A stretch of DNA of 64,000 nt, taken from NCBI RefSeq assembly GCF_036588685.1, contig NC_086381.1:24304001-24368000 (forward strand). The letters run 5' to 3'. The number at the start of each line of letters is the position of its first letter. Position 1 is the stretch's first letter. This stretch comes from Mytilus trossulus. Lineage: Eukaryota. Under the pieces are notes generated by a model, which was not told the DNA's origin, searched no databases, and worked only from the letters and a program-made list of their open reading frames with translations. This document shows, piece by piece, positions 3,241 through 60,200 of the stretch. The translations under genes and the position numbers were made by a program.

Positions 3241-3728
3241 GGTAAACGGATAGAGAGTCACAGGACAAAAAGTCACAGGACATAAAGTCACAAATTTGGT
3301 AGGACAAAAAGTCACAGATAATCTGTTGACAATTGTTGGAATATATAAGCCAAATATCTTGAAATATTTGCTTTCAAAAACATATATTCATATTCAAGTT
3401 TAGTAAATGTGTCATTATACTGGAAAAATGATAATTTATTTAATTTTAATCATGCAAAAGAAAGATTTCTTAGCACCATAAAGCCATTTAAGTGTCGAGC
3501 CACTTTTACATTTTGTTTTTTAACAATTTATTTGATCATCCTTGATGTTTTTTTGATAAATCTTGTTAAAAATCTGAGTTCGAGAAAAATACTAAAATAT
3601 TTTTGTAGAAATTATCGCTTTTAATTTAACAAGTTTAAAGAAAATAATCAGAAAAAATTAATTGTGACTTTTTGTCCGTTACTTTTTGTCTGTGATTTTT
3701 TAGTCATGTGACTTTCTGTCTTACATTC
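3241..3728. mobile_element. Non-autonomous DNA transposon (MITE) with 15-bp subterminal repeats
   Basis: (GGACAAAAAGTCACA)n at the left end, inverted copies at 3663-3725; flanked by direct repeat CTTATTTC (3233-3240 and 3729-3736). Confidence 0.7.
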
Positions 3729-4096
3729 CTTATTTCAATAGCAAAACATTAAAGTGTCTGCACGTACCCGCAAATGGTTACAAATAGCCAAATTGCCATT
3801 CATAGGCTATGCATACCCACATCGGGTTTTACAATAAAATAAAATATCCAATCGGGAATGAAACGTGAAATATATATAGATGTTATCGATAATATTGGGA
3901 TTTCGTGTAGAACAAGTGAAGAGTATGAAAAATAATATTTTCAAATTGTATTTATTAGATAATAATACATATAATAAACATTGCAAATTAAATGCTCACT
4001 GACAAATGACTGATGGAAAATGTCCCTGTCAACGAAAAACTTTATAAAAGATCTTAAAAATTACTACTATCATAAAATATAATTGCAAATTTAAAG

Positions 4097-4883: not shown

Positions 4884-5690
4884 CATACCTGTCAACCTCT
4901 GAAAATGAAAAGTCAGGTCATGACCTGCATTGAGAAAAAAAATCTCAGGTCATAACGCGTACGACATTTTGCGGGCTCAATTGAAGAACAAAAATATGTT
5001 TATATATAATTTATATAGTCAATAGGTATATAAAACAGTTAGAACATGTATACAAGTTTATTTCAGACTATTGTTATATTCCATAGTAGCAGACTTGGCA
5101 TTCTTTAAAAGAACTGCACTTGGTTTCAGTTCATAGCAATGCAAATGTGTATTCATTTTACAAGAAAGAAGAGCACACAGTGTATCCTTATTAAGATCAG
5201 CCCTAGTCTCTGTAGCTATTTTCTTTACTAAAAAAATGCCCTCGCACTGTCTGCATTGCTGTTTGGCAAAACCAGTAGGCAGTAATGTTTTAGCAAGTTT
5301 TGACAAAACAAAAAATCTTGGCTTGTTAAGAAAAATGTCATGCAACTTGGACATTTCTCCCCAAAATGTACCAATGTCAGTTTCAGGGGAAGTGCAAAGT
5401 GGAAGTTCATCTAATGGGGTCAACTGATAGTCACTGAACTCATCTTGTAGCTTGTTGAAAATATCGTTACGTAGCTCAGGTAAACAAGTCCTACATTTTG
5501 ACTTTTGGTTACATTGAAAAAGACCGATAAAACCGAAGGTCGTGTTACTTCTAAATACCGGAAACAATTCCGGTCAGAAATCCGGGTAATGTTAGAAATT
5601 CCCGGGACCCGCCGGGTAAAGAAAAACTCCCGGGTGAGAGGTGAAAATAACGGGTGTCACCCGCAAAAAACGGGTGAGTTGACAGGTATG
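4884..5690 (-). mobile_element. Internally deleted hAT transposon with 6-bp TSD (hAT6-like)
   Basis: TIRs CATACCTGTCAAC / GTTGACAGGTATG; GAGTAG duplicated at 4878-4883 and 5691-5696; frameshifted hAT C-terminal dimerisation-domain remnant (LSKLAKTLL..LVLPNSNADSARAF..TETRADLNKDTLCALL) at 5058-5410. Confidence 0.8.
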
Positions 5691-15084: not shown

Positions 15085-15834
15085 TTACCATTTGAAATTA
15101 TCCTCCTCAGCATCGAAAGATACGGATAGATTTTTCTTTAGGTTGAGCGGGCGAGGTCTTGCATTACTGAGTGAAGAGTAATCTGGTGGAGGAGAGTCCT
15201 TTTCTTGTGGTCTCCATTTTGGTTGAATTATTGGCAACATTGAAGACAGTTTACACCTTTTCAGAAATGACATATCAGTTTCCTCTTGTGAATCTTCCTT
15301 TTCCACATCTCCAAAATTGTTTATTTTTTTAAAAGGATGAAAATTATCTTCCCTGAGCAAATATGTTTTAATTTGGTACTCCTGTAACTTCTTGTCCATG
15401 TAACTATCATTTTTAGAACTGAAAGTATCATGTACAGGGCGATTTAAGTCATACGGTGACGATTTATATTCTTTATAATCATATTCACGAATAGAATTCT
15501 CTGGTCCACCAATTGGAATTAGTTCTACATTTGTGTTTCTTCTGGGTTGTTTAATGGATTTCATTTCTTCGTGTTGATCTCTAGTTATGTAATTTGGCTT
15601 ATATTCTTTATACTTATGTTCATGAAAATTGTCATAAGAACGATGTTTTTCGTATAATTCATGAACTTTTTCGTATTCATGAACTCTATTATATTCTTGT
15701 ATATTTTTATTCACACGCAAATGTCCATTAAATGTAAAAATTTCGTATTCTGATAACCTTCTAGCAACATTGTCAAATATTTGTTGTTCCGGACCAACCG
15801 GATATTGAGCTATTCTAGGTCCTTTTCTCTCCAT
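15085..15834 (-). CDS. Uncharacterised low-complexity protein, paralog 1 (about 249 aa from first ATG; may be a terminal exon)
   Basis: 759-bp open frame in AT-rich DNA; shares FxPFKK and DMxFLKxxKLSSMLPIIQPKW with the 21166-21633 ORF; TTATTTGCAG acceptor-like site just upstream of the ATG. Confidence 0.7.
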   Translation of the reverse strand: MERKGPRIAQYPVGPEQQIFDNVARRLSEYEIFTFNGHLRVNKNIQEYNRVHEYEKVHELYEKHRSYDNFHEHKYKEYKPNYITRDQHEEMKSIKQPRRNTNVELIPIGGPENSIREYDYKEYKSSPYDLNRPVHDTFSSKNDSYMDKKLQEYQIKTYLLREDNFHPFKKINNFGDVEKEDSQEETDMSFLKRCKLSSMLPIIQPKWRPQEKDSPPPDYSSLSNARPRPLNLKKNLSVSFDAEEDNFKW

Positions 15835-16153
15835 TTCCTGCAAATAATATTTTGAGATAAAGTAACATCTTCTTGTGGTAACATTTTACAGTAAGTAACA
15901 TTCATTTTTTTCTTTAAGGGTGTGGGTTATTGCGAAAACATGAAGAAGACTTATAGGAATTGGGACGACTGAGAAAACATGAAGAAGACTGATAAACAAC
16001 ATCTGATAGTTCAATCTACTTTTTTGATGTTCTGTTATTACATTATTAGTCCAAAATTTCCCCATAATCGATTATTTTTAAGCGATCTCTACGATCTCGT
16101 CTGAGGTTGCATCACGTTATAAGTCAAACAGCAAATAGTTATCAAAGATACCG

Positions 16154-19722: not shown

Positions 19723-20508
19723 TTAAAATGTTGATCTTTTCAATGAATAAATATAGCTACTAATAAGAAGATCTATAGAATGAAAAGGATCTTCCAAAAT
19801 AGATTGCCTTTGTGAGTTTGCTCTCGTCACTTTATGATTATATTCCTTAGACGGACGATTACGTGGTGAAAATGATGATGTCTTTGGTTTCAGATCAAAT
19901 CTTGTCTGCTTTACAACCGGTAAAATTAAACGCGGTTTTGTTATCCTACTTATAAACACATCACTAGAATTCAAACTTGCTCGACGTTTCTGAGATCGCT
20001 TCGTAGGAGGTAACGGGTCCTTGGATTTAGTATGCATCACAACTGGTAGAACTACGGGAAGCGCGGGCTCGAGCACTGGCATTGTTTTATCAGTCGTTCT
20101 AATTGAAACTTTATCATCTGTCTTTCTAACCGAAACTTTATCATCGGTCTTTCTAATCGAATCTTTATCGGCCGTCTTTCTAATCGAATCTTTATCGTCT
20201 GTCTTTTTAACAGAAACTTTATCATCTGTTTGCTTTTGGGGGGATTTAGGCTTCTCCTGATTCTTGATTGAGGGCGTTTTAGTTGTTTTTTTCTTAGTTT
20301 CGCTGTCATTTTGTTTATTATTGCCGAATAAGTCATTATTTCCCTCAAACAGGTCGTTTTTTTTAAATGGATCGAAATTTTGCTTGTTTAGTTTATAAGA
20401 TTTCGGTCTTTCATATTCACGTGTCTTCTGTTGTATTGGATCTTCTAATTGAACGTCTAATGCATTGCGGTAAGAACTTAGATTATAAGGTTTAGGTTTA
20501 TATTCCAT
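19723..20508 (-). CDS. Uncharacterised Lys-rich low-complexity protein, paralog 2 (261 aa)
   Basis: Intronless 786-bp ORF; N-terminus aligns with the 21166-21633 ORF (NLSS...EDP...K.REY.RPK.Y...FDPFKK.DLFE); internal 9-aa repeat KTDDKVSIR. Confidence 0.7.
   Translation of the reverse strand: MEYKPKPYNLSSYRNALDVQLEDPIQQKTREYERPKSYKLNKQNFDPFKKNDLFEGNNDLFGNNKQNDSETKKKTTKTPSIKNQEKPKSPQKQTDDKVSVKKTDDKDSIRKTADKDSIRKTDDKVSVRKTDDKVSIRTTDKTMPVLEPALPVVLPVVMHTKSKDPLPPTKRSQKRRASLNSSDVFISRITKPRLILPVVKQTRFDLKPKTSSFSPRNRPSKEYNHKVTRANSQRQSILEDPFHSIDLLISSYIYSLKRSTF
20090..20230 (-). repeat. Coding 27-bp tandem repeat (KTDDKxSxR x5)
   Basis: In-frame repeat inside paralog 2. Confidence 0.8.
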
Positions 20509-21165
20509 GACGAACTTTATATGTCCATAATAAATAAAAGCAAACTTATTATTCCATCTTAATCTTTCTTTATCAAACAGTCATAATAAGTCTTGTTGAA
20601 ACAAATAGTATAATATTTCCTGAATTATTATCCAAAAATTCGCAAACTTTTCTACGATTTGCTACAAACTGTATCTAAATAAGTTCTTAACGTAATATGT
20701 TAGTTGATACTAAATCGCCTTGCATTAATATTCGATAAATATTTTTTTACAAAAAATGCATACGTGCGTTTCAAGTCTTGCAATCAGTTTAAAAATCGTA
20801 AACGCTCGCTAAATGTATGACGTTTAAAAGCATGTCATATCGATTAGGGAACTAATTATAGTCGTTCTTTCTGTGTTATTGTATTGTTATTGAGTTACTT
20901 GATTCGTCTTTTGAAAGGTGATCCCCACAATCTGAGTTTGTTTACGTTAGGTACGGTCAGGAACTGTAGGTGGCATGTTATTCCTGACCATACAAAACAA
21001 AATTAAAAAGTGATCTTCAAATTTGACTTTGTTTACGTTAGGTACGGTCAGGAACTGTGGTATGATCAGAAACTGCAGATGGTATGCTATTCCTGACAAA
21101 ACAAGTAAAAGAATTCGCGATAAGCTCACATAGCATTACAATTCAGTTTCAATTTACTGTTCACA

Positions 21166-21633
21166 TTAGGGATGTTGTATCCATTTTGGTTGAATAATTG
21201 GCAACATGGATGATAGTTTGTAGTTTTTCAGAAATTCCATGTCATCATCTTCATCATCTTCATCATTTTCTATGTCATTTGGCTTTTCATATTGTTCTTG
21301 CATTTCTAGGGGTGTCTGTTGCTTCTCTGGCATCTTCGGAGGATGTTTTGGTTCTTCTTGTTCTTGTATGGGCGAGTTTGTTGATTTGTGTTCCCTTTGT
21401 TTCTGTATAGTCATGGTTGTTTTATCTTCACGTTCATTCTCTGAACTGCTTTCATATTTTGGTTGCGTTTCCTCAAACAAATCTACCTTTTTAAAGGGAT
21501 CAAAAGCTTGGCTGGTGCTTGCATAAGGTTTTGGTCTTTTGTATTCCCGAGGTTTGTGTTCAAAAGGATCTTCTACTTTTCTATTAAATGTTTCTTCAAC
21601 AGAACTCAGATTTAATTCAGGTTTATCCTCCAT
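21166..21633 (-). CDS. Uncharacterised acidic low-complexity protein, paralog 3 (155 aa)
   Basis: Intronless ORF with both family motifs: EDPFEHKPREYKRPKPY...FDPFKKVDLFEE and DDMEFLKNYKLSSMLPIIQPKW. Confidence 0.7.
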   Translation of the reverse strand: MEDKPELNLSSVEETFNRKVEDPFEHKPREYKRPKPYASTSQAFDPFKKVDLFEETQPKYESSSENEREDKTTMTIQKQREHKSTNSPIQEQEEPKHPPKMPEKQQTPLEMQEQYEKPNDIENDEDDEDDDMEFLKNYKLSSMLPIIQPKWIQHP

Positions 21634-23034
21634 AATGTCTGTGGAGACTCGGTTACAAGATATTTAGTGGTAGTTTCTTTTTACTTTAAACGGATTGTCA
21701 ATATAATTGATATAATAGTAACTTCATGTGATAATCCTAATATCATTTCATTTCTCGAATAAAACTCATGAATACGTTGCTTGAAATTTCAAACGTTATT
21801 TGGAATGGTCGCACAGTCTCTGTTCCTAATAGTTCGAATAATTCTTTTTTTTCTGATTCCAAATCCAAAATGTTAGTTTGTTTTCATGTTGTTAGTAGAC
21901 AATTAATGATTTTTTTATAAACTATCCCGCACTTTATTCGTTAAATATTTATTTTCAGACTTCAACGGATTCACCTGATAAGTATCATATTTTCAAGTGC
22001 ATACTAAGCGGTAATCTATAAAATCTTCCTTTGTTTTATTGTGATATTAATAGTCCCTCTAAGGTCAAGTAACAATATATGGGTCATGTCACAGGATTTT
22101 CTACACAACTGTGGATTGGTAAATTTGACATAAAGATTAAGAAATAATAAAATACCATAGTTTTTTTTTTTTATTATTTTCTAAAATATTATTGAATGTA
22201 TTATTTTTGAAATAGATAAATAAGTATATGAAACATTATTAAAAGACGGTGTCAAAAATATTTTTTTGTTTCATGATAATGCATATTGTATATGGGTTGT
22301 GTTGAAAAAATAGGGGAAAATGACACAGAGGTCAGTGATATATTATGTAGAGTAATATATCACTGACAGCTGTGGATAGTTAACGTTGAATTGATAGTAA
22401 ATAGCAAATACAAGTTATTTGTAGTATACTAATGTTCTTATGATACAGAAAAACGTGATAATAATTAAAACTGAGAGAAGACAAAAAAAAAAAGATTTTG
22501 GAAAAAATGCGAAGGCAGCACAAATCTGTCCTGTCCCCTAGTACCTTTGTTTCATAATAATAAACATTATAAAAGTGAATGCCTTTTATATGAATTTGGT
22601 TAAAAAGAGGGGGGAATGCAACAGTTGAAAAATTCACCCATCTGTAGGTTTAAAATTATTTTGTTATCTTAAAAATATTTCTTATTCAAATATTTTTTTC
22701 CCAGTATTAAAACATTTCTTCCTTCTTTTTAAGGGTGTGCGTGGGGGAGATTATGAGAAACAAATCCCATGTAGACAAAATTGTATTTACTATTTCTGCC
22801 TATACATACATTCTTGCAAGCGATGATAATAGAATGTGTCTACGCAAAAAAAAAATAACTGAATTCTTCTTCGATAAAAATGCGATGAACGCAGCATATT
22901 TTATATGAAGCGCTTTCAACACTAATAACATACAAAACAACTCTTAAAGTTACATTTGTATGCTGCGGCCATGAGATTGAAAGTTATTTATAGTTTGGTT
23001 TGGTTTCTTATTCCTCGTTGTGTTAATTTATAAA

Positions 23035-33348: not shown

Positions 33349-36300
33349 ATGAAATTGATTTTATTTTTCACGGCAACATTTGTGTCGGCTTCTCTGGCTG
33401 TAGTTGATCTAAATGGTCAATGGAATCGGTGGAAAACTGACTTTGACAAATATTACAGTACTTCAGAAGATGAAGCTAACAAGCGTGCCGTGTGGGAGAT
33501 GAACCTGGAATATGTTAATGCACACAACAATGATGTACAATCAGAATTCAGATTGGCAATGAACGAATTTGCTGACCAGGTGGGTTTTTATGTTATTGTA
33601 TTTAAAATGTGAACCGTACATAGACGTAACCATAACCCCAAAACGACTTCCTCTGATAGTAATATTCATAAATTGTCTTCGTTGGGGGACAACATAGCAT
33701 TTTTAATTGTCATCTTTAGAACTAAAGAACTAAACTCCGGACACTATTAACAAAAAAATATCAGCAAATATTGATCTTCAAATGAGATTACTAGTATATA
33801 TAATTAAAACGCATATTGGCATTGATATAGTGATGATTAACTTGTTGGTGACATTTGAATTTAGATGTGTCGGGAGGGGGGCTTTGAAACTCCAAAAATT
33901 ATACTGAATCTATTGGTAAGCTACATAAATTTTAAAATTTTAATTGAGAAAAAAAAATCAAATTGTAAGTGAATGATCGAGTCTCTATTTCAAAAGTCAA
34001 AAAGAAGATGTACTTAGTATTTCATATTCTTCGCTTATTAGTTCAATTTCTTCAAGATTGGAACCTGTTAATTTTCAATTATGACGATTGCACATTATTG
34101 TGTATAAAAACGCGTTCCGGCGTTCTTTTGTTACTATCTTGGGTCAGTTGTTGGCGGTGGTTGCTGTCTGTCATGATGTTCAAGTTTTCGTTTGTTATTT
34201 TGGCATAGGTCGCACTGATGTTTTTTCTTCTTTTCTTCTTTTCACATTGGGTCTACTCGTATGTGGGTCCTTTATAGCTCACTATACGGTATGTGTTTTG
34301 TTGAATGTTGATTAGCGTGCCGTGTAATGCATACAAATCAGGAGACGCTTATCCCGTTCCCGGTCTTCTTTCCATGTAGAGTTCATGTGATTCCTTTAGT
34401 TTTAGTTTGTGTTTTTTTTTTTACCTTCTTCTTTTCTCTTCGACAGATTTCCGAAAACCTATCACTCATCGTGAGAAAAGAAATATGCTTTAATTTGATC
34501 TCCATTAAACAACTGTCCACTAATTTTATAAACAAAGCCAGTCGGATCATTTGGTGTCAGCATGACGAGTCTAATTATCTCATTGGGAATCACATCACAT
34601 ATTCTTTTTTATATGTCATAAATACTTGATTTATCATTACAGGAATCACCAAAACGTCCACATATTAAAACTGATTCTGAAAGAGAGTATGAAGAGATTG
34701 AACACAATTGGACTTATTTACCGTCTACTTTTGATTGGAGAACAAAAGGTGCAATAGGTCCTGTGCAAAATCAAGGACAGCTGGGACAAGTACTTTCAGT
34801 TGCAGCTATAGGTGATATTCTTGAAAAATTCACGCTACTATCTATATTCTATATCAATATCACTGTGTGCTTCTTAAAATCTAGTGCATTTTAAATTTGA
34901 TTTGTTATGATTTGATTTGACATTTTTAAAAACAAGTGAAAAGTGTTAAGTGCAATTGAATAGGGGTCAATATAGATGGAATGCATCTTTAAAACATTTT
35001 AAAATCTAAATCTACAACTTGATTTGAAGAAAAATCCCAAAACAACTCTACGCTTAACATTTTTATTCTATATCCATATCAATGTGTGCTACTTAACATC
35101 TAGTTCACTTTAAAAAAAAGTTTGGTTTCTCTTAAGTGTGAGTTGTTTTGGGGATTTTTCTTCAAATCAAGTTGCGTGATTTTGCGTTTAATAGATGTGT
35201 TATGTAAGATGTCTTTAAACAAGAAGTATTTTTTTCTCATCCTACTTTTTTTTATTTATTTCAAAAAGCTCAGACAAAGTATTTATATTCAGGGGAGCTG
35301 AAGATTTAGATTTTAAAATGTTTAAAAGATGCATTCCATCTATATATTAACCCCTATTCAATTGTACTTAACACTTTTTCACTTGTTTTTAAAAATGTCA
35401 AATCAAATCAAATCAAATTTAAAATGCACTAGATTTTAAGTAGCACACAGTGATATGAATATAGAATAAAAATGTCAGTATGAAACCTGAAAAAAAAGTA
35501 TTCACTAATGTAACAATAGCCTGTGTGCAATTGATACGATATAATTCACCAAATGTTATAGAACTGAACATGACGAAGAATTAAACTGTTTTTTTTTTCT
35601 TTTTTAACACAGAAATTATGGAAAGCTATGAATTTATAAAAAGTAGACGTTCGATTCCATTAAGCTTGCAAGAAGTGGTGGACTGCTGTACTCATGGGTC
35701 TGAGTTGGTGACACCAGTGTTTAACTGTATACATAATATAGGTGGTCTGTGTTCAATGGCAGATTATCCAACGCATGGTCCAGCTGGACAGTGCAGAAAC
35801 ACAAGCTGTACGTCCGTTGTACGGGTATGTTATTCCCTATCATGTATACTAGTTTTCAATAGTTCAAACAATTCATAAGTTTTGCATTTTTTTTTTAAAT
35901 AGTATAAATAAGAGACAAGAATTTCTTTCATTGCTTATAAACTCGTCATAGATACCAGGACTAAATTTTGTATATACGACAGACGCGCGTTTCGTCTACA
36001 AAAAACTCATCAGTGACGCTCGAATCCAAAAAAGTTAAAAGAGGCCAAATAAAGTACGAAGTTGAAGAGCATTGAGGACCAAAGTTCCTAAAAGTTTTGC
36101 CAAATCCAGCTTAGGTAATATATGCCTGAGGAAGAAAATCCTTAGTATTTCAAAAAATCAAAATTTTGTAAACAGTTGTGCAAGCCACGTTTTACTACAA
36201 TGTTAAGATATCAATAAACATCATAGATGTTTGCTAATTCTAAAATAAAAACTTTATAAATTTACTTAGTTAAAAAATATAAAGTTTGTCTTGGAACTTC

Positions 36301-37153
36301 TTTACATAACTGTTTTTTTTTTCGATTTCAGAATATGGGCACAATGGCGGTTGCAGAAGGAAACGAAGACCAATTACAGATAGCCGTGTTACACTTTCCA
36401 GTAATGGCAGTTATTGATGCTAGTCTTCAGTCATTTCAGTTGTATCGATCTGGGGTCTACGATGAACCAAAGTGCAGTTCAACAAAACTTGATCATGCGG
36501 TTCAGATCGTCGGATATGGTTCTGAAGGTGGAAAAGATTATTGGATCGTCAAAAATAGCTGGGGTATGTTTTTTGTAGGCCTGGATAAGGCTTACAGATT
36601 ACAGAATGTTGGGTCATGAACACAAAATTAAATGGGATAAGAAACAAATAGAGAAAAGAAGGTCTGCAAATAGATAACAGAGAACTACGGAATACAAGAA
36701 ATTATAAAGAAAATGCATGAATGGTCATTTATAAAATAAATGTAGGATCCCTTTCTAGAGGCTCATATTTATAATAATTATCAAAGGCACCAGGATTATA
36801 ATTTAGTAAGCAAGTGCATCAAACGGATGTCGATATTTGTATATTCTGACTATTTACATAAAGAATCTTATAAAATTATTTCATGTAACTGATGTCTCAC
36901 GCTATTCCGGTAAAATTTACAATATCATATCAACACTGATTTTTTTTTAAGAAAAGACCCTGAATTTTATTTCAATTGTCATTCTCTTTTAAAAAATCGA
37001 AACACAGCAGTGATGTAAAGCAGCAAAATAGTGAAACAGAGAATAATTTTGTATGTTTTAGGTGTAAACTGGGGAATGCAAGGTTACATACTAATGAGAA
37101 GAAATAAGAATAACCAATGTGGTATTGCCTCTGATGCCACCTATCCTGTATAA
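33349..37153 (+). CDS. Cathepsin L-like papain-family (C1A) protein, catalytic Cys replaced by Val (probable pseudoprotease), 311 aa
   Basis: Exons 33349-33579, 34643-34811, 35613-35824, 36332-36563, 37062-37153; all GT-AG, phases 0,1,0,1 consistent. Signal peptide, I29 propeptide (ERFNIN-like E-R-W-N-V-N, AMNEFAD), [32 protein letters not shown]. Confidence 0.92.
34843..35468. repeat. Long nested inverted repeat (foldback) in intron 2 of the cathepsin-like gene
   Basis: 34843-35012 is the reverse complement of about 35302-35468; inner arms 35015-35057 / 35131-35173. Confidence 0.8.
35976..36019 (-). ncRNA. Minimal type I hammerhead (variant A, intact core), antisense in cathepsin intron 3
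   Basis: Minus: GCGUCA-CUGAUGA-GUUUUUUGUAGAC-GAAA-CGCGCG-UC-UGUCGU. Confidence 0.7.
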
Positions 37154-37394
37154 CCGATTTGGTATTGCCTCTGACGCCACCTATTCTGTATAACCGATGT
37201 GGTATTGCCTCTGATGCCACCCATTCTGTATAACCAATGTGGTATTGCCTCTGACACCATCTATCCTGTATAACCGATGTGGTATTGCCTCTGACGCCAC
37301 CTACCCTGTATAAACACTGAAGAATTACCTCTGACGCCACCTATCCTGTATAAACGCTGAAGCATTACCTCTGACGCCACCTATCCTGTTTAAC
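37111..37394 (+). repeat. 40-bp tandem repeat x7 spanning the cathepsin-like stop codon
   Basis: Unit TAACCAATGTGGTATTGCCTCTGATGCCACCTATCCTGTA starts at 37111, 37151, 37191, 37231, 37271, 37311, 37351. Confidence 0.9.
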
Positions 37395-39381
37395 AAATAC
37401 TATTATGTGTGAAAGCCTTTGGTTTCAGCTATCCTGGTTGTTGGTTAACACATACTGGTAGCTTTTCCTAATATGTTATCCTCATTCAAATAAAACTGAT
37501 AGTAGCCAATGTTTTTTTATTAATAAAAAAAAATAGGGAATGTGTCCATGGGACACAGATGGTGCCTCCACTTGTATATCATATAAAGTTATAAAGGGGA
37601 CAACATTGTAAAGGGATATATCTCTTGAACGGTTGAAGTGACACCACCAAACACCACCATTGATCTGTAGTTTGTGGCAATAAGCATTGTGTATAAGTTT
37701 TGATAACATTTGGTCGAGACAAAACAAGAGTTATAGAAGAGAAACAAAAAAATCAGCAATTTTTCATATGTAAAGTGGCATAACTCTAGAATGTTAAAAG
37801 GGATGCTACCACAATTCAACCATGATCTGTGGTTTGTTGTAATAAGCATTTTGTATGAGTTTCATAACATTTGGCTGAAGCAATTAAAATAAGGGGAACA
37901 GAACGGAAACCAACTTTGGGACGTACCTACATACAGACAAGGTTAAAACTTAATGCTCCGCCCGTTCCGTGGGGGCAAATAAATCAAAAAGTGCACAAGA
38001 GGCTAGCAAATAGCTTTACTTGCCTAAATATGTACCACCTACGACATTGCAAAGTTTAATAACATCACTAATGTCAATACCTACTACAAACTAATCTAGA
38101 GAGAGGTCCGGTGGTAAATACAATGGAACAGACACCAAGAACTACATACAGGAGATAACATTAATAAGATGAAAGCAACTGTCAAGAATATTTGGGTTTT
38201 GATCCTTAATCTAAGAAAGTCCAAAGTAAGTAAGTACAGCCAGTACCAGTATGGATACTGTTCCAGTATCAAATAATTTTCTAGCCATGATACTACATGG
38301 TACCATTAATCAAATTCTGCAATTGACAAATACAGAATTCATTAGAGGGCTTTCAGAGACGCAACCTTGACTTGATTTTACAGATGTATATGCTGAATAA
38401 CAAGAACTGTTGGGACTTTGTTTCTGATTTCATATGAAACTCAATGAGAAGGTTGATAGCACCTGGCACACTGGATAAACAGTAATCCAGAATGCTCCAG
38501 AATGCTCCGAAACCAGTTGGGAAGAAAATACAAAAGTATACACACAAACTTATACCACCAAAATGAGGCTTAAAAGGAGTCAATAAGTGTTGTTTTTGGT
38601 GGATGTTTTTAGTAAGTTATTGTTGGCTTTGAACTAGATTTCAGAAACTGTGAGTCAACTCAGATCATTGTGTGTCTTCAGTCTTTTGATTGTTTTTGAT
38701 TTTTTATTTAGCTTTGTGTCGATCTAATGAGTGTAGTTAATTTAAACTGATTTTTACAGTTTGATCTTATGTTGAACTGTAACAACACTGTCCTATATTT
38801 GGGGTAAAAAAACATGTTGAACCCAGCAACATTTTGTATATATTATGCCTGTTCCAAATCAGGAGCCACTTATTCAGTTATCATTTGTTTTTATTGTATC
38901 TCATATATGTTTTTTTACATCAATCAGGCCATTGCCTTTCTAGGCTGAACTGTTTAAATTTGTCACTTTTGGCCTTTTGCATTTCTATGCAGTCTTTTCC
39001 TCATTGTTCAATAGATATAGGAAGATGTGGTGTGAGTGCCAATGAGACAACTCTCCATTCAAATAACAATTTAAAAAGTAAACCATTAAAGGTTAAAGTA
39101 CGGCCTTCAACACGGAGCCTTGGCTCACACCAAACAACAAGCAAAGGGCCCCAAAATTACTACTGTAAAACCATTCAAACGGGAAAACCAACGGTCTAAT
39201 CTATATAAACAAAACGAGAAACACGTATATATTACATAAACAAATGACAACTACTGTACATCAGATTCCTGACTTAGGACAGGTGCAAGGCTGCATAACA
39301 ACCTATTGTTTCTATCATGGTCATATGGTCCCTTGTGGATAGTTGCCTGAATTGGAATCAATTCATGGTTTTATTTGTTTA

Positions 39382-45200: not shown

Positions 45201-48200
45201 TAATGTAGACCAATTTGAAAACAAGACAAAAAATGAGGAATCTACATACACAGTTAGATTTGGCATATCAAAGAACCCCATTTATTCAATTTTTGATGAA
45301 ATCAAACAAAGTTTAATTTTGGACCCCGATTTGGACCAACTTGAAAACTGGGCTGATAATCAAGAATCTAAGTACATTTTTAGATTCAGCATATCAAAGA
45401 ACCCAACCGATTAATTTTTTGTCAAAATCAAACGAAGTTTAATTTTGGACCCTTTGGACCTTAATGTAGACCAATTTGAAAACGGGACCAAAAGTTAAAA
45501 ATCTACATACACAGTTAGATTCTGCATATCAAAGAACCCCAATTATTCAATTTTGATGAAATCAAACAAAGTTTAATTTTGGACCCTTTGGGCCCCCCCC
45601 CCCTTATTCCTAAACTGTTGGGACCAAAACTCCCAAAATCATTACCAACCTTCCTTTTATGGTCATAAACCTTGTGTTTAAATTTCATAGATTTCTATTC
45701 ACTTATACTAAAGTTATGGTGCGAAAACCAAGAAAAATGCTTATTTGGGTCCCTTTTTGGCCCCTAATTCCTAAACTATTGGGACCTAAATCCCCCAAAA
45801 TCAATACCAACCTACCTTTTGTGGTCATAAACATTGTGTTTAAATTTCATTATTTTCTATTTACTTAAACTAAAGTTATTGTGTGAAAACCAAGAATAAT
45901 GCTTATTTGGGCCCTTTTTTGGCCCCTAATTCCTACACTGTTGAAACCAAAACTCCCAAAATCAATCCCAACCTTTCTTTTGTGGTCATAAACCTTGTGT
46001 CAAAATTTCATAGATTTCTATTAACTTAAACTAAAGTTATAGTGCGAAAACCAAGAAAATGCTTATTTGGGCCCTTTTTGGCCCCTAATTCCTAAAATGT
46101 TGGGACCAAAACTCCCAAAATCAATACCAACCTTCCTTTTGTGGTCATAAACCTTGTTATAAAATTTTATAGATTTATATTCACTTTTACTAAAGTTAGA
46201 GTGCGAAAACTAAAAGTATTCGGACGACGAAGACGACGCAGACGACGACGCCAACGTGATAGCAATATACGACGATTCAAAATTTGCGGTCGTATAAAAA
46301 TCAGCCCAATATCTGAAAGCGTTTAGAAAAAAACTCCGTATAACTATGATTTTCAACAATTTATCAAAATCCAAAGTCCGTAATTACAGCAAAAATTAGC
46401 AGAGCGGAAGGAAACTTAAACTTGATCTGTAACTCATCATGGTTAACTTACAAACCAAAAATATACCAAGAAAATAACTCTGTAAGATGGTTTATTGCAG
46501 AATGATGGAATGAGGGAATGAGGGATTTTCGTACAAGGGTGAAACTATATGCGGGGCCATAATTCGTTGCGTGGCCATAAAAATTTGATTTCTGTTCATG
46601 GGTTATAGAATATACATGTCAATCCTTAATTAAATTCCTATATAAATAAAACTTATTAGATTGTACTGATCAGTTCTCTGATTGTATAAACTTATAGGGA
46701 ATACTTCATTGGTGTTAATAAACATACTACTTACTTGATGGAGTATACTGATCCCTCCTCTGGAACCCTTTTAGATTCTGCTTGAGGGGTGAATATAAAC
46801 CTACTACTTGTATTATTTTAATTTTAGGTTCTTGTGTACAATTTGGAAATTAGTATGGCATTCATTATCACTGAACTAGTATATATTTGTTTAGGGGCCA
46901 GCTGAAGGATGCCTCTAGGTGCTGGAATTTCTCGCTACATTAAAGACCTATTGGTGAAATTCTGCTGTTGTTTTTTCTATGTTCGGGTTGTTGTCTCTTT
47001 GACACATTCCACATTTCCATTCTCAATTTTATTTTACTTACTTGATGGAGTGAACTGATCCCTCTTCAGGAACCTCTTTAGATTCTGCTTTAGGGGGCAC
47101 ATATTCATCATCTTCTTCTACAAAGTAAAGAAAAAGAATAATAAACTTAGTGCTTTATATGTACCGAGATACATTTTTATTATGGTAAACCATAGTCATT
47201 TTACAGTGTTGGAACCAACTTAGAACTGTTATAATCATAAATAAAGAAAAAACATGTGTTGCTCAATCATTCCATTTTCAACATGAGGAAATGCCTTCAC
47301 AAGTCATGAATATGAGAGTTGTTTTCCATTGCTTTGATGGATTCGAGCTTTTGATTTTGATCAGGAATTTTCTTTTTGAATTTTCCTTAGAGTTTGGTAT
47401 TTTGTTATTTTACATTTTCCAGTGAACCTTGAACTGCAACTCACCAATTGCTGGTGGCTACTTTACAGTAACAGAGTAATGACTTAAAAATTTGTTGTCT
47501 GTCCCTCTCATCTATTATAGTTTTCAAAATAATACTAGTAGGCAAACAACTTGTAAAAAAAAACATCATTTGAGGCCAATGCTCCATCATGTATAAGTGT
47601 ATAAGGAGTTGTCTGACCATTGTGTCCATGTTTGTAGATCTTGTCTTGGTGATCATTTCCTTTTATATTTTCTTTTTATCAATTTGTTGTCAGATCTCAA
47701 CATTCTGAACATTTCTGCACCTAGACAAAATTTGTTATTCTTATGTGCTACAACCAGGAATTTAGGTCATGCTAAAAATCAATTTCAATTATTTTAAACA
47801 TTGACTTAGTACATGTGCATCAAGTTTTTGATTATCTTAATTATTGAAAACATAATAAATTGTAACCATATATACAGGTTCTGCATTTCAATCTGATTCT
47901 AATTAAAACACTTCTGTTGTTTGTTGATGTTCAAAGTAATTTTAAACCATGCACCAGGGCAAAGTATATATGCTCTGTATGCCCCTTGTGGGCCCTTAAT
48001 TGGAAATAAAATATGTTCTGTTTTGTTCTATCAAATTATACCTTGACTAGCACCACTCTCTCCAGCTGGCTTGTTTACAGCAAACGAGAAACCTGATGTA
48101 GGTTTACTCTCTGTGGAAGACTTGAAACCAAACCCGGAGAAACCAGTAGCTGTTGAGCCAAATCCAGTTGTTGTAGTTGAGCTGGCACCAAAAGCCGCAG

Positions 48201-51200
48201 TTGTTGTAGGAATAGAACCAAACCCAGTTGGTTTAGTTAAACTGGCACCAAACTGGAAACCAGTTCCCAATGGTTTGGTCTCTGTAGTTGTTGCTGTTTT
48301 AGAATTAGGAGAATTACCAAATGCAAAACTTGCAACAGATGGCTTGTTTTCTGTTGTTAAAGATGTTGGTGACATAAGAGAATTTCCAAGGGGAAATGTT
48401 GGAGCTGTTTCTGTAAAAAAAAATAAAATACTATTTTACGAAAAACTGGTCGGACATCAAACAAATAAATTTGACATCTATTATGGGTTGAGAACAGTTA
48501 ATTTCAAATAGAGGTGTGCCAATGTGTATACATCGCTAAGGTTTCATTCGATTTTGAAGACAAAATTAAAACCAGATGTTTTGCCCGAGTAATTGATCCC
48601 AGACTCATTTAGGGGATTAGTTTTGATTATCAAATTGACAGGAAATCCTCAGCTTTTTATTTTTTCACCTTTGGCAGTGTTTGAATATTAATGATAATGC
48701 TTGCAAGTTGTTTTTTTATAGCATGAAATCATTGTCCATTTTACGATTAAGTGGTCTAATCTGCGAAAGAGAATTTCCGCCATATTACATAGTAAACAAA
48801 ATTGTTTGTGTGTCAAGTAAAAATTACTTTTTCCACGTAAATTAGTTTTAATTTGATTTTAAATCAAAATTGACAATTGTATTAGCTGAAAAGTAATTAA
48901 TTAATGAAGACCATGGAATTTTAATTTCTTTATAATATTAGTTCTGAGCTTGTGATCATTTCTCAGGTGTAAATTAAAAACACAGGTAAAGAGATTGGCA
49001 ATCTTTAGCCAATATTTCCCTGAGGCATTTTAAAATATAGTTTTAAGGTGGGCGCTCAGGATTTAACAGTATACTGGAGTGGCAGTTTTATTACAGGAAT
49101 GGGATAACAAGACAAAAACAAGTGCAAAATGGCGATCAATGGCAATGAAGAAACCCAATTTTAACGAAATGACCAAATTATTTCTGTAAACAAACAAAAT
49201 TTTTCCCAAATCCCAATCTGTTGTTTAGCACAAGTAGATTTCAGAATCAGTCATGTTCGCAAATATAACCGTTTCTGGACCCTTGCTCATCTCCTAATTC
49301 AATTTTTACCCTCAGAATCGATGTCAGTTAATATCCCACAAATTATAAAAAACACACCAGATTTAAAGATTATTGAATTTACAGTGGTTTTACAGGACTT
49401 ACTTGTGTCTGTTTCTCCTTTTGATTTCTCTCCAGTTTCTGTTTTCTCTCCATCTTTATTTTTCATTATTTCTTCTAAATGTTTCTCGTAGTCTTTAAAT
49501 ACAGGAGTCAATATACAAAATGGATTCTTATCAACATGACTTTTTATCCATGATAATACACTTTCATTCAAATTTTTCAAACTTGACAAATAAGAGCCTT
49601 TCTTTTTCTCAGCACCATTTGATGCTGGAAGTGTCTTTGCTTGTCCATTTTCAGATTCTTTTGTTTTCTCTGTTTGTTTTTCATCTTTTTCCGACCCACC
49701 ATTAGTGACTGATCTAACATTAAAAGAGAATGGCGTACTAGCTGCTGTAGGTTTGAAACTAAAACCAGAAAACCCACTGAATTCTTTGTTCTAAAAAGAA
49801 AGAAAGGCTTTTAATATCAAATCTATGACTGAAATTTATTAATATTAGTTGCTTAAGGGGACAAACTATAAAGAAATAAAAACTTAAGGATGAACTCATA
49901 TCACTCTATTTTGTATCAATGACGTACAAATGTATATATTTCTTTTACAAAGTATTTAAAAGATTACAGGTAATGTACATGTACAATTTAATTTCACAAG
50001 AAGACTTTTCACCTTTCCATTACACATTAATCCGTGAAAAAGATAGTTATTCTCTTATTACAACTTTCCACAACTGCAAGTACATGTAACTAGCACAATA
50101 CCTGAACTGGACCTGCACCTCTCCTTTTTCCTTTTAGAATTTGTCTTCCTTTTAATGATTCTTCAGTGGCAAGCTGGATTTCCCCTGCCTGAAATTTAAA
50201 AATTTGTAAAGTTAAAAATACAGTGTTATAGACTATCATAGTATCTAATTTATTATTACAAAATGTATGCACTTATCTACATGTTTTCAGGTGTACACAA
50301 CATGTTTAATAAATATGGTATGTGGATAAGCAACTCCTTATTTGTGATTATATATATATAACAGGTCAACTATTTTATGTCAGATTGAACTACTTTTGCA
50401 TACATGTTGTAAATGTCTATGGTGGTATCCATAATCTATAAATAGAATAAATTACTCAGTAATCAGTGTAGATCTTTATACATAACGTGACGGTACCCAA
50501 ATTGCACCTATTTTGACAGTTTTTTCACCTACATTTTTTTATGATCAGGAAAAAAATGTCCATACTGTGTTTATTTTGTAGCCCTATCCTTCTTTGTCAT
50601 ATAGGTACACCCATTTAATTTTTGGTCCATATTGAGTCATTAAAAAATGGGTTTGAATCAACCTCCAAACTATCCATGATTCTGTAATGAGGAGTACCCA
50701 AATATGCATCCATGCTTAAATTTACATCATCAAAAGTCTAATAACCGAGCTTTTGTTTAATTTCTTCAAATATTTTGAACAATTGGATATTTGTCCATGC
50801 TTACTATTCATATTTTACGAAATGGATACTTATAATATATTGTATTTGCCAATTTTAAAAAGATGACGTTTTGATGACGTCGCATGGTGACGTTTTCGTA
50901 CATTTTGTTTTTTTCAGTAAACAGTCCATCTGTTGATAAATACTGTGACATTTGTGTATAACTAAATATGATTACCTATGTTGAAAGAAGGGCATAGTAT
51001 CAAATCATAAAAATACAACTTGTTTAGTCTCTAGGAAATCTTGTAAGATTTTTATTGCTATTTTTTTCTAAATAGGTGCAATTTGGGTACTCGGTGCAAT
51101 TTGGGTACCCTTACGTTATACATGCAAATTTTGAGACAGGAATATAAATCATTAGTTGTGACTTTTCATTCATTGTCATTGAAATGAAGAACATTCTTTT

Positions 51201-53439: not shown

Positions 53440-54900
53440 TTGGTTCTTCTGAAGCCATTTGCGTCTGTCTAATAAAGGAAACAACACAAACATAACCCAA
53501 AACACACATCAGGGTAAAAGACTCGATATATCAAATTACCATCAGAACAGAAAGAGTGAAAAACTGCTGCAAACCATCAACCCATCCAAAGCTTCTGGCC
53601 CACTCAATATACCAAATAGAGTACTGGTGACCTTCTGCTGTTGTTTTTTCTATGGTCGGGTTGTTGTCTCTTTGATACATTCCCCATTTCCATTCTCAAT
53701 TTTACTGAAACAATGCGCCGAACATCTGGCACACCGATACTAACATCAATATTGCAGCTATACCTAGACAGTGGTACTCTACTAGAGGACTTGAGAAATG
53801 CTAACATCTCTAGGATCTTTAAGAAAGGAGGCAGACATGCGGCTGAAAACTATAGGCCAGTCTCGTTAACATCAGTACAATGTAAGCTACTTGAGCACCT
53901 TATATGCGGACATATGCTTGCTTAAACACCATGAAATGCATAATGTATTGACTTCTTTAAAACATGGCTTTAGATCTGGATATTCTAGGGGATACCTAAT
54001 TTACATCCCAATCATACGACAAGGGAAACCGAGTAGACCGTCAATGCGATCCTGGATTTATCGAAGACTTCGACACTGTACCTCATGATGGACTCCTGCA
54101 CAAAATAAATCAACATGAAATATCCACAAATGGCTAACTTAATTCCTAACTGAAAGAAAAATGCGAGTCCAACTAGAAAATGTAGAAGGAGAACACTCAA
54201 CTAATGCCTCAGTTGAATCCGGAGTCCCCAAGGAACAGATCCAGGATCCATCCTTTTTTTGTCACATAAATGATCTTCCAGATGCATTAAACTCGTCAGA
54301 CCGAGTATTTGCAGGCGACTGCTTGTGGTACAGGGACATAAAAAAAACAAAAAACCAAAATGAACATAACAAACTACAAGAAGATCTCAAATCACTAGAA
54401 AAATAGACCAACGACTGGGGTATGCGCTTTAACGCTAAAAATGCTTTATATATGCTAAAAAAAGGGGGAGGCTCTGCTAAGCCTATAAGCAAATTAAATA
54501 ACCACGTGCTAGAACAAGTGCCATTCAACAAACAAAGCCAGTTCCATGAACGCTAGGCTTCCTGATAAACAGACAACACTGCCCTAAGGAATGCCGTAAA
54601 ACAGCATATATAGCACTAATAAGATCCGTTATACAGTATGGATCAATTATCTAAGACCAATTTACGCAAAATAGACATAGATAAATTAGAATACATACAA
54701 AAGGGAGGGGTTCGATTCATCGCTAAAGACTACAAATCAAGAGAGAAAGGATGTATGACAAAAATTGCAACAACAATGATTGAATTTATTTTCAACGTGT
54801 TTAATGGGAAGATACCAGTGCTCCCTCTCATGGACGACCTTATTAAATTTCACAGACTCATTGGAAACGACACTAAGGGCTACAACCTTTAACAACTTTA
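53440..54900 (+). mobile_element. Degenerate CR1/L2-group LINE reverse transcriptase
   Basis: KASGPLNIPNRVL, IFKKGGRHAAENYRPVSLTSVQCKLLEH, HGFRSG, LDLSKT.DTVPH, SGVPK, HINDLP, FAGDCL, WGMRFNA; many frameshifts; interrupted by a family A repeat at 53625-53702. Confidence 0.85.
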
Positions 54901-55301
54901 TCACCAAGAACATGCGCACTGTAGTAGAGTGGTCTAGATGAGTCGATAGTGTGCGTCCCTATAACTGACGGGAGCCTTTAAACTGCACTCCTCAGGAAGC
55001 GCAACTAACTTGTGCGCAGACCAACCGTCACACAATCATGCCGAAAGGAATCTGTGACATATCCATCCACACACAGAATTTCATTTTGGGAATACAAATA
55101 CAGATACTTTGACAAGATGTAATTTTTGCTTTTAAAGAAGACAGCAATTATTTAATACAGTGGTTTTCTTCAAATAAAATACAGGCCAATCTTTAGTGTT
55201 TTAGTTCTTCTAGCCACGGCTGTTTGCTGTTGCTAATTTTACGTAGCTGTGTGTCCATCCAAGGGTGGCTGTATCTCTCTTTGGTCTCTTTAGTTGGTAC
55301 G

Positions 55302-55557
55302 NNNNNNNNNNNNNNNNNNNNNNNNNNNNNNNNNNNNNNNNNNNNNNNNNNNNNNNNNNNNNNNNNNNNNNNNNNNNNNNNNNNNNNNNNNNNNNNNNNN
55401 NNNNNNNNNNNNNNNNNNNNNNNNNNNNNNNNNNNNNNNNNNNNNNNNNNNNNNNNNNNNNNNNNNNNNNNNNNNNNNNNNNNNNNNNNNNNNNNNNNNN
55501 NNNNNNNNNNNNNNNNNNNNNNNNNNNNNNNNNNNNNNNNNNNNNNNNNNNNNNNNN
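55302..55557. other. Assembly gap (N run)
   Basis: Run of n characters. Confidence 0.99.
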
Positions 55558-55619
55558 TAACTCAATTAGAAATAGTCTAATTTTCATTGAGGCCCTCAAA
55601 CAAAATACCTGCATACAGT

Positions 55620-56445
55620 TAACATTGATACATTAAATTACAATATATATTACTAGTATATACAACAATACAATCATTGAAATATACAAAGGGTAATAAA
55701 TGACAATATTTGATTTAGTTTTGTTAAAGAAAAACAAATTATTTGACTTGCATATAATTTTCAAGAAAATTATTATAACTATGTTTCTTGAATAATTCCA
55801 CATTAGGACATTTTTTTTATTTCGAGTGGTAAATTATTCCATACTTTGGTTGCAGAGTAATGAAAAGATTTTTTATATAAATTTGTATTTGGTCTTGGAA
55901 CGAAAAGATCATTATTAGAGACAGATCGTAAGTTGTGGCGTTGCACATCATCAATATTTAGAATTGCTAAGTAATCAGGTGTAAGCCCATTTGCAATTTT
56001 ATACATTAAAATTGATTGTTGGTATTTTATTTTTTTGGTAAAAGATAGCCATTTTAAAGAAGAAAACATGAAATTAGATGGAATAGAAATATCGCATTCA
56101 AGTATAATTCTTGCTACTCTTTTTTGAAGTTTTATGATTTTATCTGAATCTTTTTGTAATAAATTTCCCCAAACTGAACTACAATAGTCTATATATGGTA
56201 GAATATATGCATTATAAAATAGTTGCCTTGTGTGTATTGGCAAATATACTTTAATTTTATATAAAAGTGATACTTTAGATGAGATTATTTTACATACACG
56301 ATCAACATGATCTTCCCAGCTTAAATTTTCATCAATGTCAATTCCAAGTAATTTAAAAGCCGAATGGACATCTCAATACATGTTTCGTTGACGGTAATGC
56401 ATAATTCTGATAGTTGTTTAAGTTTTGGTTTTGAACCCAACATTC
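55620..56445 (-). mobile_element. 3' end of a CR1/L2-group LINE (RT C-terminus)
   Basis: FKLLGIDIDENLSWEDHVDRVCKIISS...FYNAYILPYIDYCSSVWG...LQKRVARII...SFHYSATKVWNNLP. Confidence 0.85.
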
Positions 56446-57254: not shown

Positions 57255-60200
57255 ATGATGACAACTCCAGAGCTAGAATTAATTCAAGTGCAGCTGAAGT
57301 CGGCTATTCAAAATCATCAGGTAAAAACAACCAATGGTTTTCAAATGCAACTTTCTTATTTTCATATCGCAAAACAAAGTTGTGTATTAAATTTTGCATC
57401 GAGTAAACATTTATTGCTGTTAATTTTATTGTATATTATTTGAATATCTTTGAATATGAATTTATTTATTAATTGTTTCGTTGGTTTTATTTGTGTATTT
57501 TCCCAAAAATAACCAATATTTCTGTGTCGTTTCGTATGAGTGGTTATGAATGCGCACGTCACATTACACTATCATGGATAGTAAAAACAGATTTACAATA
57601 AAATTAATAATTAAAATATGATTTACTAGTATTTTGTACTTTTTATAATTTCAGATCCTGGTTTCTAAAATAAAGGCTGATCTACAGGTGAGGAAATTAA
57701 CGTATTTTTACTGAATCATTGTTGTACATTTTATATGCTTGGGTATTTATTGATTTTTGTTGGACAAAGTTTCATTTTCCAGTTACACTTATACAAGTGA
57801 TAATTTATGTATTTCTTTACAGAATGTGGAGCTAAAAACACAACTTCGTGATTTACAGAAACAGATTACAGTTTTAAGTGAAAAACAGGTAATTTAATTT
57901 GAATTTTAAAAAAAAGTAAATTTTAATTATATTTTTGTATCAGAAAAAGATATTTATTTTTGAAAATCTATGCAAAGTCACATTGTAGAGTGTTACCCTA
58001 ACTAAATATAATTTGCAGTTTATTTATTAACATCTTTTTTAACATAACTACGATAATCAGTCAGTTGCTGATCCTTAGCTCTTATTTTCTTATGACTTTT
58101 TTGACAATATGTGCACTAAAAAATTATAAGATCCTTAGAGCTTAAGGTCGGCAAATTGCCTAAAAATATGTTAAGGACCTAAGAGCTGTGGTCCCACAGC
58201 AAGATTAATCAGTTTTATGTTTATAAAGAGGCGTAAGAAATCAAAGGAATAGTTAAAACTATATATAGAAGGGTAAAAGTACCTGGTACTGCCCTCTAAA
58301 AAATGGACTGTTTATTATGAAAAGTTAATTTCTCCATATTAGGAGTGTGAAAAAGCCAAGAAGTTGAAATAATATTTGCCTAATGAGGCTTATGACATAT
58401 GAACTCTTACATCAAATCCACTTTAAAAGAAAGTAAAGGCATACAAAAATACTGTAAAATTGAAATGTTGCATCAATAAAAAAAAAAGAAGCATAATTTT
58501 TTATAGAAATTAATTATTTAAATTTCTTTGCAGAGGATTATAGTTCAGAGTTTGCGTAAAGATATTATAACAAAGAAATCACCAGTGTCAACCCAAATGA
58601 ATATTCAGGTAAATATCAGTTAAATTTTACCCTTGTCATGTAATCATTTATATATTATTATTTCCATTTGCATTAAATTTATTCATTTATACATTGGTTA
58701 CAATGAATTTCATTGATTTCCAAGTGAAATAAAAACCGATAATTTCACATGTGAAATAAACATGATTATTTCACTCCTCTGACGTCATACAACAATAGAA
58801 ATTGGTATAGTTTGAATAGCTTCAGTGAGCTTCACCTTTGATGGGGTCCAGTCGAAGGATATCTTTTTCTACATCTGATGTTTTAACAACTACTCAGGTT
58901 AAAATTTGAATTTAAACTATTCCAAGAAATGATAAAAAGAGATTTTTAGTTATAACAATTTTGAAATAATTTACTCTACATTTGTGCAATGTAATTTGCA
59001 ATATAACTAAATTCCTAGTGTGTGTTAAGAATAGCTCATCAATTTACTGAAAAGATTTTCCTATGTGAAGCATTAGGCATAAGAATAATATGTTTACCTC
59101 TTTTCCGCTACTTTTTCAAATCTGCTAGATATATGACAAATTTGGCAATGAAGGGATCAGACATGCTTTGAAGATTAAACCGATTTTAATTTTGACTCAA
59201 TAACTAAATCACTGTTGATATCAAATGTATATATTTTCTTGCAGCCTACTTGCCTACCACTTGGAGCCACAAGTATTGCCATTACAACAGTGCCACCAGC
59301 GGCACACGCTATGACTCAACCTGCTCATTTATTACTCCAGCCTGTTGTCAATCAACTCATTCCAACTGTATTTGCTGCTCAGTCTATTGGTCAACCAATC
59401 TCACCTCAAATATGTGCTATGCCCCAGTTTGTCCAATCTATTGGTCAGTTGGTGACATCATTACCACAACCAGCTCATATAAATCAACAAATCTTGCCAC
59501 AGCCAACGAACATACAAACAACTCCTGTTATTCCTATCCAGCCAGCCAGGATATTACCAGCACCTCTCCCTGTCTCTCTGATTCAAACAGCTGTTACTAA
59601 TGTGGTTAGCTCAGTTATAAAGACAGATAAATCTCAGCCATCTTCACCTTTACGAGTACCTCAGTATCCTAAGTCAAGGTCAACTTCACAGGTAAAATAT
59701 CTTGTATTATTATAAAATTTGCATATACTGGTATTTATAAATAGTCATCTGTATTAACATATATATGCATAAAAATATCTTACAATTTAAAAATTAAAGG
59801 TATATGAAATTATGGAGATGTGGTCGCATTGCCAATGAGCGACCATCTACTAGAAATAAAAAGAGAAAGTTTTAAACCTCCACAGGTGTCCATACAGTCT
59901 TCAAGTTCAACAATGAGAAAAACCCATACTTTAAATTTAAAATAATGAATACTTGTAGAAATTTCTATATAGAACATGTAGAATAAGATGTACATGTAAA
60001 GTGACAACTTGTATGCAACATTTCCATAAATCCATGTAAATTGATATTGTTTCAGGGTAGTTCTAAGTCATCCTACTCTACATCAATACAAAGGCAACCT
60101 TCATCTGATGATCTTGGTGATAGAACTGTTGATAAAAAACCAACTCCAGAAGAAAAAGAGGTATGTTTGTCAAGATATTCGTTTACATTGTAGTATAACC

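Follow-up and report, generated by a model that had tools for sequence, protein, structure and literature searches.

The window analysed here, i.e., the whole 64-kb stretch of Mytilus trossulus DNA, carries on its plus strand a gene (33349–37153) for a cathepsin-L-like protein in which valine occupies the position of the catalytic cysteine (Table 1). With the exon boundaries corrected, the gene is composed of five exons separated by four introns, all GT-AG, and contains an unbroken 311-aa open reading frame. The predicted protein is letter-for-letter identical to RefSeq XP_063399116.1 (P0001 in our alignments), annotated as M. trossulus 'procathepsin L-like'. Its hydrophobic N-terminus fits a predicted signal peptide; the intact splice sites and the signal peptide described in an earlier, sequence-only reading of this DNA are thus borne out, the latter as a prediction. 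A Pfam scan of the whole protein returned Peptidase_C1 (PF00112, E 1.8e-58) and I29 (PF08246, E 1.5e-11, above the cut-off and covering profile positions 1–54 of 59). The PF00112 domain and the papain fold place the protein in papain family C1A, and the I29 propeptide, the ERFNIN-like motif and a GNFD-type motif reading NEFAD place it in the cathepsin-L-like group. The copies of the 40-bp repeat at the 3' end decay with distance from the gene and leave the protein unaltered.

Table 1. The cathepsin-L-like gene and its 3' flank, in window positions.
Feature	Position	Strand	Content
Exon 1	33349..33579	+	Predicted signal peptide (~residues 1–17) and I29 propeptide with ERFNIN-like (residue 42) and NxFxD motifs; PF08246 E 2.1e-12
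Exon 2	34643..34811	+	Short propeptide linker without the cleft-blocking helix motif; mature-domain start LPSTFDWR (34718); remodelled active-site helix
Active-site stretch, 13 residues	34772..34810	+	Gln19 at 34772; Leu at the Cys22 position, 34781; Val at the Cys25 position, GTA 34790–34792; Leu at the Trp26 position, 34793
Exon 3	35613..35824	+	L-domain: C158, C159, shortened loop without GCxGG, C172, C180, C194, sequon N196-T-S, C199
Exon 4	36332..36563	+	R-domain: Met229 (S2 floor, 36404), DASxxSFQLY loop, C252 (36473), His259 (36494), Asn279 (36554), Trp281; PF00112 E 6.7e-24
Exon 5, coding part	37062..37153	+	C-terminus with C301; stop TAA
40-bp tandem repeat, 7.1 copies	37110..37394	+	Unit equals the last 12 codons plus stop; copy 1 coding, the others in the 3' UTR
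Two AATAAA hexamers	37489, 37522 (37489..37527)	+	Candidate poly(A) signals (inferred function)

Several other open frames were recorded in the window. Phe-Gly, Ser/Thr-rich frames on the minus strand (48031–48435 and 49299–49790) gave no Pfam match and by their motif resemble exons of the nucleoporin Nup50. Three long charged frames, also on the minus strand (15085–15885, 19723–20580 and 21166–21663), have short motifs in common pairwise and are perhaps repeated exons of one gene; Pfam returned no match for the two of them that were scanned, and a 27-bp repeat (20089–20229) lies inside one. A 178-aa Pro/Gln/Thr-rich frame on the plus strand (59179–59715) was likewise without a Pfam match, and the frames at 53620–56372, around a 256-base N gap (55302–55557), are ones we take to resemble fragments of a reverse-transcriptase retroelement.

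Active-site changes and gene integrity

Alignment to procathepsins K and L places Val127, encoded by GTA as read earlier, at the position of papain Cys25, with Leu124 at that of Cys22 and Leu128 at that of Trp26. The oxyanion glutamine and the catalytic histidine and asparagine, also called intact in that reading, are present as Gln121 (papain 19), His259 (papain 159, in LDHAV) and Asn279 (papain 175, in KNSWG). Set against an active cathepsin L, the protein therefore retains Gln19, His159 and Asn175 and lacks both Cys25 within CGSCW and the Cys22–Cys63 pair with its GCxGG loop. Both partners of that disulfide are gone, as had been stated, but the GCxGG loop is replaced rather than wholly deleted, by a Cys-free loop approximately four residues shorter. 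In addition to the retained canonical pairs C158/C194 and C252/C301, four extra cysteines are present (C159, C172, C180 and C199); the number agrees with the earlier count, although the DCC motif cited for it combines one canonical (C158) and one new (C159) cysteine. Papain-family catalysis depends on the Cys25 thiolate, for which Val, Ala or Pro is no substitute, and the Mytilus protein is therefore, on established chemistry, almost certainly not a cysteine protease.

A pseudogene, an assembly error or a true CGSCW-bearing exon 2 located elsewhere would offer a different account of the missing cysteine, and the repeat expansion at the 3' end would suit such an account. Against it stand the open 311-aa frame, the GT-AG introns and the presence of valine at position 25 in four Mytilus species. 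The 90% cluster containing the protein comprises M. edulis, M. galloprovincialis, M. californianus and a Logan-only protein (9, 8, 36 and 38 differences), and the last of these, 313 aa long, also has the valine. Its longest contig, at 1,444 bases, could not hold the 3.8-kb Mytilus gene with its introns and is therefore likely to be a spliced transcript, although a retrocopy would look alike. Neither a CGSCW nor a WAF motif was found in a six-frame scan of the 64-kb window, and tblastn found no second gene copy within it, which leaves the window without the alternative exon 2 that would have overturned the earlier reading. Loss of the cysteine is, moreover, common to 49 relatives. The artefact explanation is largely refuted and exceedingly improbable, and the earlier verdict that the gene is not decaying stands.

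Evidence of selection comes from relatives. Two tandem, intronless, propeptide-less paralogues on animal-like contigs (L001–L004) gave dN/dS of 0.31–0.33 at dS 0.47–0.53 by the Nei-Gojobori method, the four loci being near-copies and therefore amounting to one comparison. The dN/dS check proposed in the sequence-only reading was thus informative between two clade relatives (about 0.32), but not for the Mytilus gene itself, which against the L002 paralogues is saturated at silent sites (pS 0.83–0.88; pN 0.34–0.36). With the nucleophile lost, the gene intact and selection seen on relatives rather than on the Mytilus gene, the protein conforms to a C1A non-peptidase homologue, and the sequence data support a maintained pseudoprotease over a decaying gene. 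At L002, the two paralogues (3285–3974 and 4981–5667) are situated between opposite-strand exons of another gene, which we take to be P450-like; they are likely retrocopies under purifying selection.

Homologues and their phylogeny

A profile as well as the whole protein and exon 3 served as queries for collecting homologues; only sequences that share words with the query can be found in this way, and many of the matches are nameless. Among the matches listed, the named bivalve relatives are scallops, ark shell, venerids, Mactra, Mya, Dreissena, unionids, Pinctada, Saccostrea and Solemya, and the other named relatives are abalones (several paralogues), Babylonia, Batillaria, the chiton Liolophura, Lingula, Acanthaster and Branchiostoma. 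Vertebrates and arthropods are not represented by any named protein among the matches listed, many of which are nameless. This host range points, by inference, to an origin of the clade in or before the last common ancestor of protostomes and deuterostomes.

Of 178 proteins aligned from the matches listed, 53 have Cys at 172, 180 and 199. We dropped P0128, P0133, P0147 and P0149, partial gene calls that continue into non-homologous sequence, which left a clade set of 49; the Cys that P0133 showed in column 25 stemmed from an unalignable N-terminus. In an unrooted FastTree phylogeny of 170 rows, from which eight chimeric or partial rows were excluded, the 49 form one split (0.987) without any outsider. 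An unrooted IQ-TREE analysis of 69 rows under LG+C20+F+G4 placed 31 clade rows, five of them from metagenome loci, on one side of a branch with UFBoot 100 and SH-aLRT 98, the bootstrap being not quite settled. The split survives removal of the trait columns (0.995) and use of the R-domain alone (0.849). Outside it lie the canonical cathepsins L of oyster and clam as well as the Ser-type proteins of corals. Whether the substitution defines a clade, a question raised by the earlier reading, is answered in part: loss of Cys25 is clade-wide, but valine is one of six residues found at this position, and we rejected it as a clade marker.

Some other sequences with related changes were noted. A second Cys-less cathepsin-L-like group, also without Cys22 and GCxGG (P0035, P0040, P0050, P0054, P0073 and P0105, from Acropora, Montipora, Tubulanus and others), lies outside the clade in the IQ-TREE analysis (87/92) and probably represents an independent loss. 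Abalone clade paralogues are numerous (Haliotis P0136, P0156, P0168–P0173, P0175 and P0187), and some of them also lack Gln19. Metagenome, viral and bacterial papain-like genes (L014, L019, L058, L086, L088 and L091–L094) have altered motifs around Cys22/Cys25; some keep the catalytic Cys and lose Cys22, and some have Asp or Pro near position 25. A viral or bacterial origin of the propeptide-less members was rejected for L001–L005, L030 and L057, whose flanking ORFs are eukaryotic-looking and intron-split. In a motif scan (91 segments from 95 loci), the 10 viral and five prokaryotic loci all lacked the combined DCC and GLC signature. The ESM Atlas yielded generic papain clusters only.

Cleft, disulfides and propeptide across the clade

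AlphaFold2 modeling with a 39-row clade alignment gave a mean pLDDT of 89.4 and a pTM of 0.86, with lower confidence in the propeptide linker (67–72) and the replaced loop (68). The best structural match of the model is procathepsin K (Foldseek E 1.4e-29, TM 0.84), and a VIA comparison of the two gave Z 34.1 and rmsd 2.5 over 287 residues. In addition to the fold, the protein shares with cathepsins L, K and S (MEROPS C1A; PF00112 and I29 PF08246) the domain order, the ERFNIN-like propeptide, Gln19, His159, Asn175 and the equivalents of Cys56–Cys95 and Cys153–Cys200. It differs from them in lacking Cys25, Trp26, Cys22 and GCxGG, and in its bulky S2 floor, four extra cysteines and short propeptide linker. 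Identity to oyster cathepsin L1 is only 22% over the L-domain, compared with 64% over the R-domain.

Conservation of the cleft is one-sided. Position 25 holds Ser (18), Val (15), Ala (11), Pro (3), Thr (1) or Asn (1) in the 49 members and never Cys; no sequence among the 53 has Trp26, and none of the 49 has GCxGG. The S2 floor is Met (19), Leu (13), Phe (6) or Val (4) in 42 of the 49, versus Ser in 102 of the 108 canonical comparison sequences, which were picked by the motif CG[SA]CW. On the primed side, His159 and Phe143 occur in 49/49, Asn175 and Trp177 in 48/49 (one gap each) and Gln19 in 44/49. Entropy over residues 121–131 reaches 1.70 bits in the clade versus 0.28 in the 108 canonical enzymes; over residues 271–310 the difference is small (1.16 versus 0.84). 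The remodelling is not uniform, as the starfish (Acanthaster) member has retained Cys22, the propeptide helix motif and a Cys in the loop. Conservation of the primed side need not mean binding, since these residues have a structural role too and canonical enzymes share them; the His is also found in 12 of 14 unrelated Cys-less proteins.

The same residues could point to a repurposed catalyst, in which His159–Asn175 and Gln19 would activate water, or a polar residue at position 24 would be used, for ester or other hydrolysis without Cys25. The near-invariance of His, Asn and Gln19 agrees with this, as do Asp, Ser, Gln or Asn at position 24 in 42 of the 49, and the His is dispensable for the fold, since the scabies mite SMIPP-Cs lose it according to PMC5956821. 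However, there is no invariant nucleophile: position 24 varies (Asp 18, Ser 15, Gln 5, Asn 4, seven others), position 25 is Val, Ala or Pro in 29 members, and Gln19 is lost in four abalone or unionid members. Retention of His appears to be the default in other Cys-less proteins; among 14 such sequences, those placed in the trees falling outside the clade, His is kept in 12 and Trp26 in 13. We therefore set aside the invariance of His as proof of catalysis, for which it is weak, and consider a new catalytic role quite unlikely.

The extra cysteines are likely to pair as C159–C172 and C180–C199, to judge from their co-occurrence and from members that hold one pair only. Across 174 sequences, C159 and C172 occur together in 51, are both missing from 121 and are discordant in two, and the corresponding numbers for C180 and C199 are 50, 123 and one; the crossed pairings co-occur well too (4–7 discordant of 174). 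C159 and C172 alone are found in P0040, P0159, P0192, L006 and L057, and C180 and C199 alone in P0162, while P0073 (C159 only) and P0026 (C172 without C158/C159) are at odds with the proposed pairing. Falcipain-2 has cysteines at the equivalents of both C180 and C199, which presumably form a disulfide there, but the match is weak (E 0.002) and limited to this one pair, and falcipain-2 itself is proteolytically active and only distantly related. In 41/49 members a sequon lies between C194 and C199, compared with 4/108 canonical sequences. The alignment columns of P0001 residues 135 and 277 hold a further possible Cys pair (both in 24 of the 49, neither in 13, one in 12), absent in Mytilus.

In procathepsin structures, a propeptide helix leads into and blocks the cleft. 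The Mytilus propeptide, described earlier as intact, is so for the ERFNIN-like and NxFxD motifs, but the next motif, that of the cleft-blocking helix, is missing, and the AlphaFold2 model has no helix at residues 77–100. Across the clade this motif occurs in 1/38 sequences versus 79/96 in the comparison set. In four of the 49 members the propeptide is absent altogether, a hydrophobic leader being fused directly to the mature domain, and no I29 match was found in the three of these that were scanned (3/3); the same layout occurs in genomic DNA (L002 and L030). These findings bear on the proposal that the I29 propeptide carries the function, acting in trans as an inhibitor of active cathepsin L once released or presented. 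The I29 match above the Pfam cut-off and the two retained motifs are compatible with an inhibitor of this kind, whereas loss of the helix motif and of whole propeptides counts against it, as does the faster change of the Mytilus pro-region relative to the mature domain (17/102 versus 19/209 residues, against M. californianus). We regard such an inhibitor-carrying role as very unlikely.

Known Cys-less relatives and a proposed binding role

Papain-fold proteins without the nucleophile are already known; they include testin, soybean P34/SPE31, TINAG, Plasmodium SERA1–5 and Dictyostelium CfaD, to which binding or adhesion roles are ascribed and whose origins are probably separate from this clade. 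Of these, SPE31 alone appeared among the PDB matches, as 2b1m. The likeness lies in a papain fold lacking the nucleophile, and 13 of the 14 other Cys-less sequences compared here differ in their retention of Trp26. Sponge silicateins, invoked in the sequence-only reading as a precedent, are cathepsin-L-derived proteins that have lost Cys25 and kept His and Asn, but they carry Ser25 (both points from PMC6233156), whereas the Mytilus protein has Val and only 18/49 relatives have Ser. The comparison is thus a loose fit, holding for the loss of Cys25 and failing for a conserved Ser, a feature by which the protein does not qualify as a silicatein. As a match, silicatein alpha (6zq3, E 1.4e-42) ranks behind mature cathepsin K and both procathepsins, K and L, and the trees contained no silicatein. 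The scabies mite SMIPP-Cs are predicted inactive papain-like paralogues with altered disulfides and glycosylation and no propeptide, according to PMC5956821. They resemble the clade in these changed patterns and, for some members, in the missing propeptide; they differ in having Ser25 and His replaced by Gln or Leu (PMC5956821), in deriving from Der p 1-like enzymes and in being confined to one parasite, whereas the clade keeps His and spans several phyla, and the Mytilus protein has both His259 and a propeptide.

Amphioxus, which has no mineral skeleton, has a clade member. This counts against a structural or matrix protein that self-assembles or templates mineral or mucus by its surface, the cleft being irrelevant, as proposed for silicateins. 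Their silica-forming activity survives mutation of the catalytic triad and is independent of it, with surface templating proposed instead, in PMC6233156. Extra disulfides and a glycan site would suit extracellular stability, and the hosts named among the matches listed are mostly shelled or skeleton-bearing. On the other hand, Ser25 is not conserved, and searches of main texts in the literature turned up no record of the protein in a shell or byssus proteome. On balance, we consider a matrix role unlikely.

Because conservation of the cleft is one-sided, a binding role on the primed face is the best reading. We propose, with a probability of roughly 0.6, that this is an intact Cys-less papain-fold protein, probably destined for secretion or the lysosome, predicted to be non-proteolytic and likely to bind a protein or peptide, its putative partner, on the preserved half of the cleft. 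The signal peptide would direct the protein to the secretory route, where the glycan at the conserved Asn196 would be added. The new disulfides C159–C172 and C180–C199 would stabilise the L-domain, taking over from the lost Cys22–Cys63 bond, and the unprimed side (S1–S3) would be closed or reshaped through loss of Trp26 and of the Gly-Gly loop and through the bulky S2 floor. The primed side (Gln19, His159, Asn175, Trp177, Trp181 and Phe143) would remain as a docking surface. With no activity left to inhibit, the propeptide may have been free to shed the blocking helix and, in some members, to disappear. Candidate partners are host or microbial proteins and protease inhibitors; a decoy for the latter is less likely, because a closed S2 pocket would weaken binding in the mode of cystatin-type inhibitors.

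A bolder version of the proposed binding role is unlikely to hold as a whole. It posits an unrecognised subfamily predating the protostome–deuterostome split, in which the cleft has become a half-site, with the unprimed side sealed and re-stapled by the new disulfides and the His-Asn-Gln face serving as a Cys-independent catalytic or receptor site. Its function would be conserved across molluscs, brachiopods, echinoderms and amphioxus, and the subfamily would apparently be missing in vertebrates and arthropods.

Searches of open-licence main texts found this branch nowhere described; a Mytilus galloprovincialis cathepsin survey, reportedly in Dev Comp Immunol, may list this gene. Passages of PMC6351634 and PMC10280926 have no bearing on it. 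What sets the branch apart is its age and how far it has been remodelled. Databases name its proteins 'procathepsin L-like', 'cathepsin L1' or 'digestive cysteine proteinase', and expression studies in mussel, scallop, clam and abalone would therefore score as a protease what is predicted not to be an enzyme. It is unusual for a pseudoprotease to be retained over several phyla, the described cases compared here being narrow (demosponges and one mite). From the starfish member, with its Cys22 and propeptide helix motif, to the propeptide-less members, the clade would offer a natural series showing the papain fold without its nucleophile.
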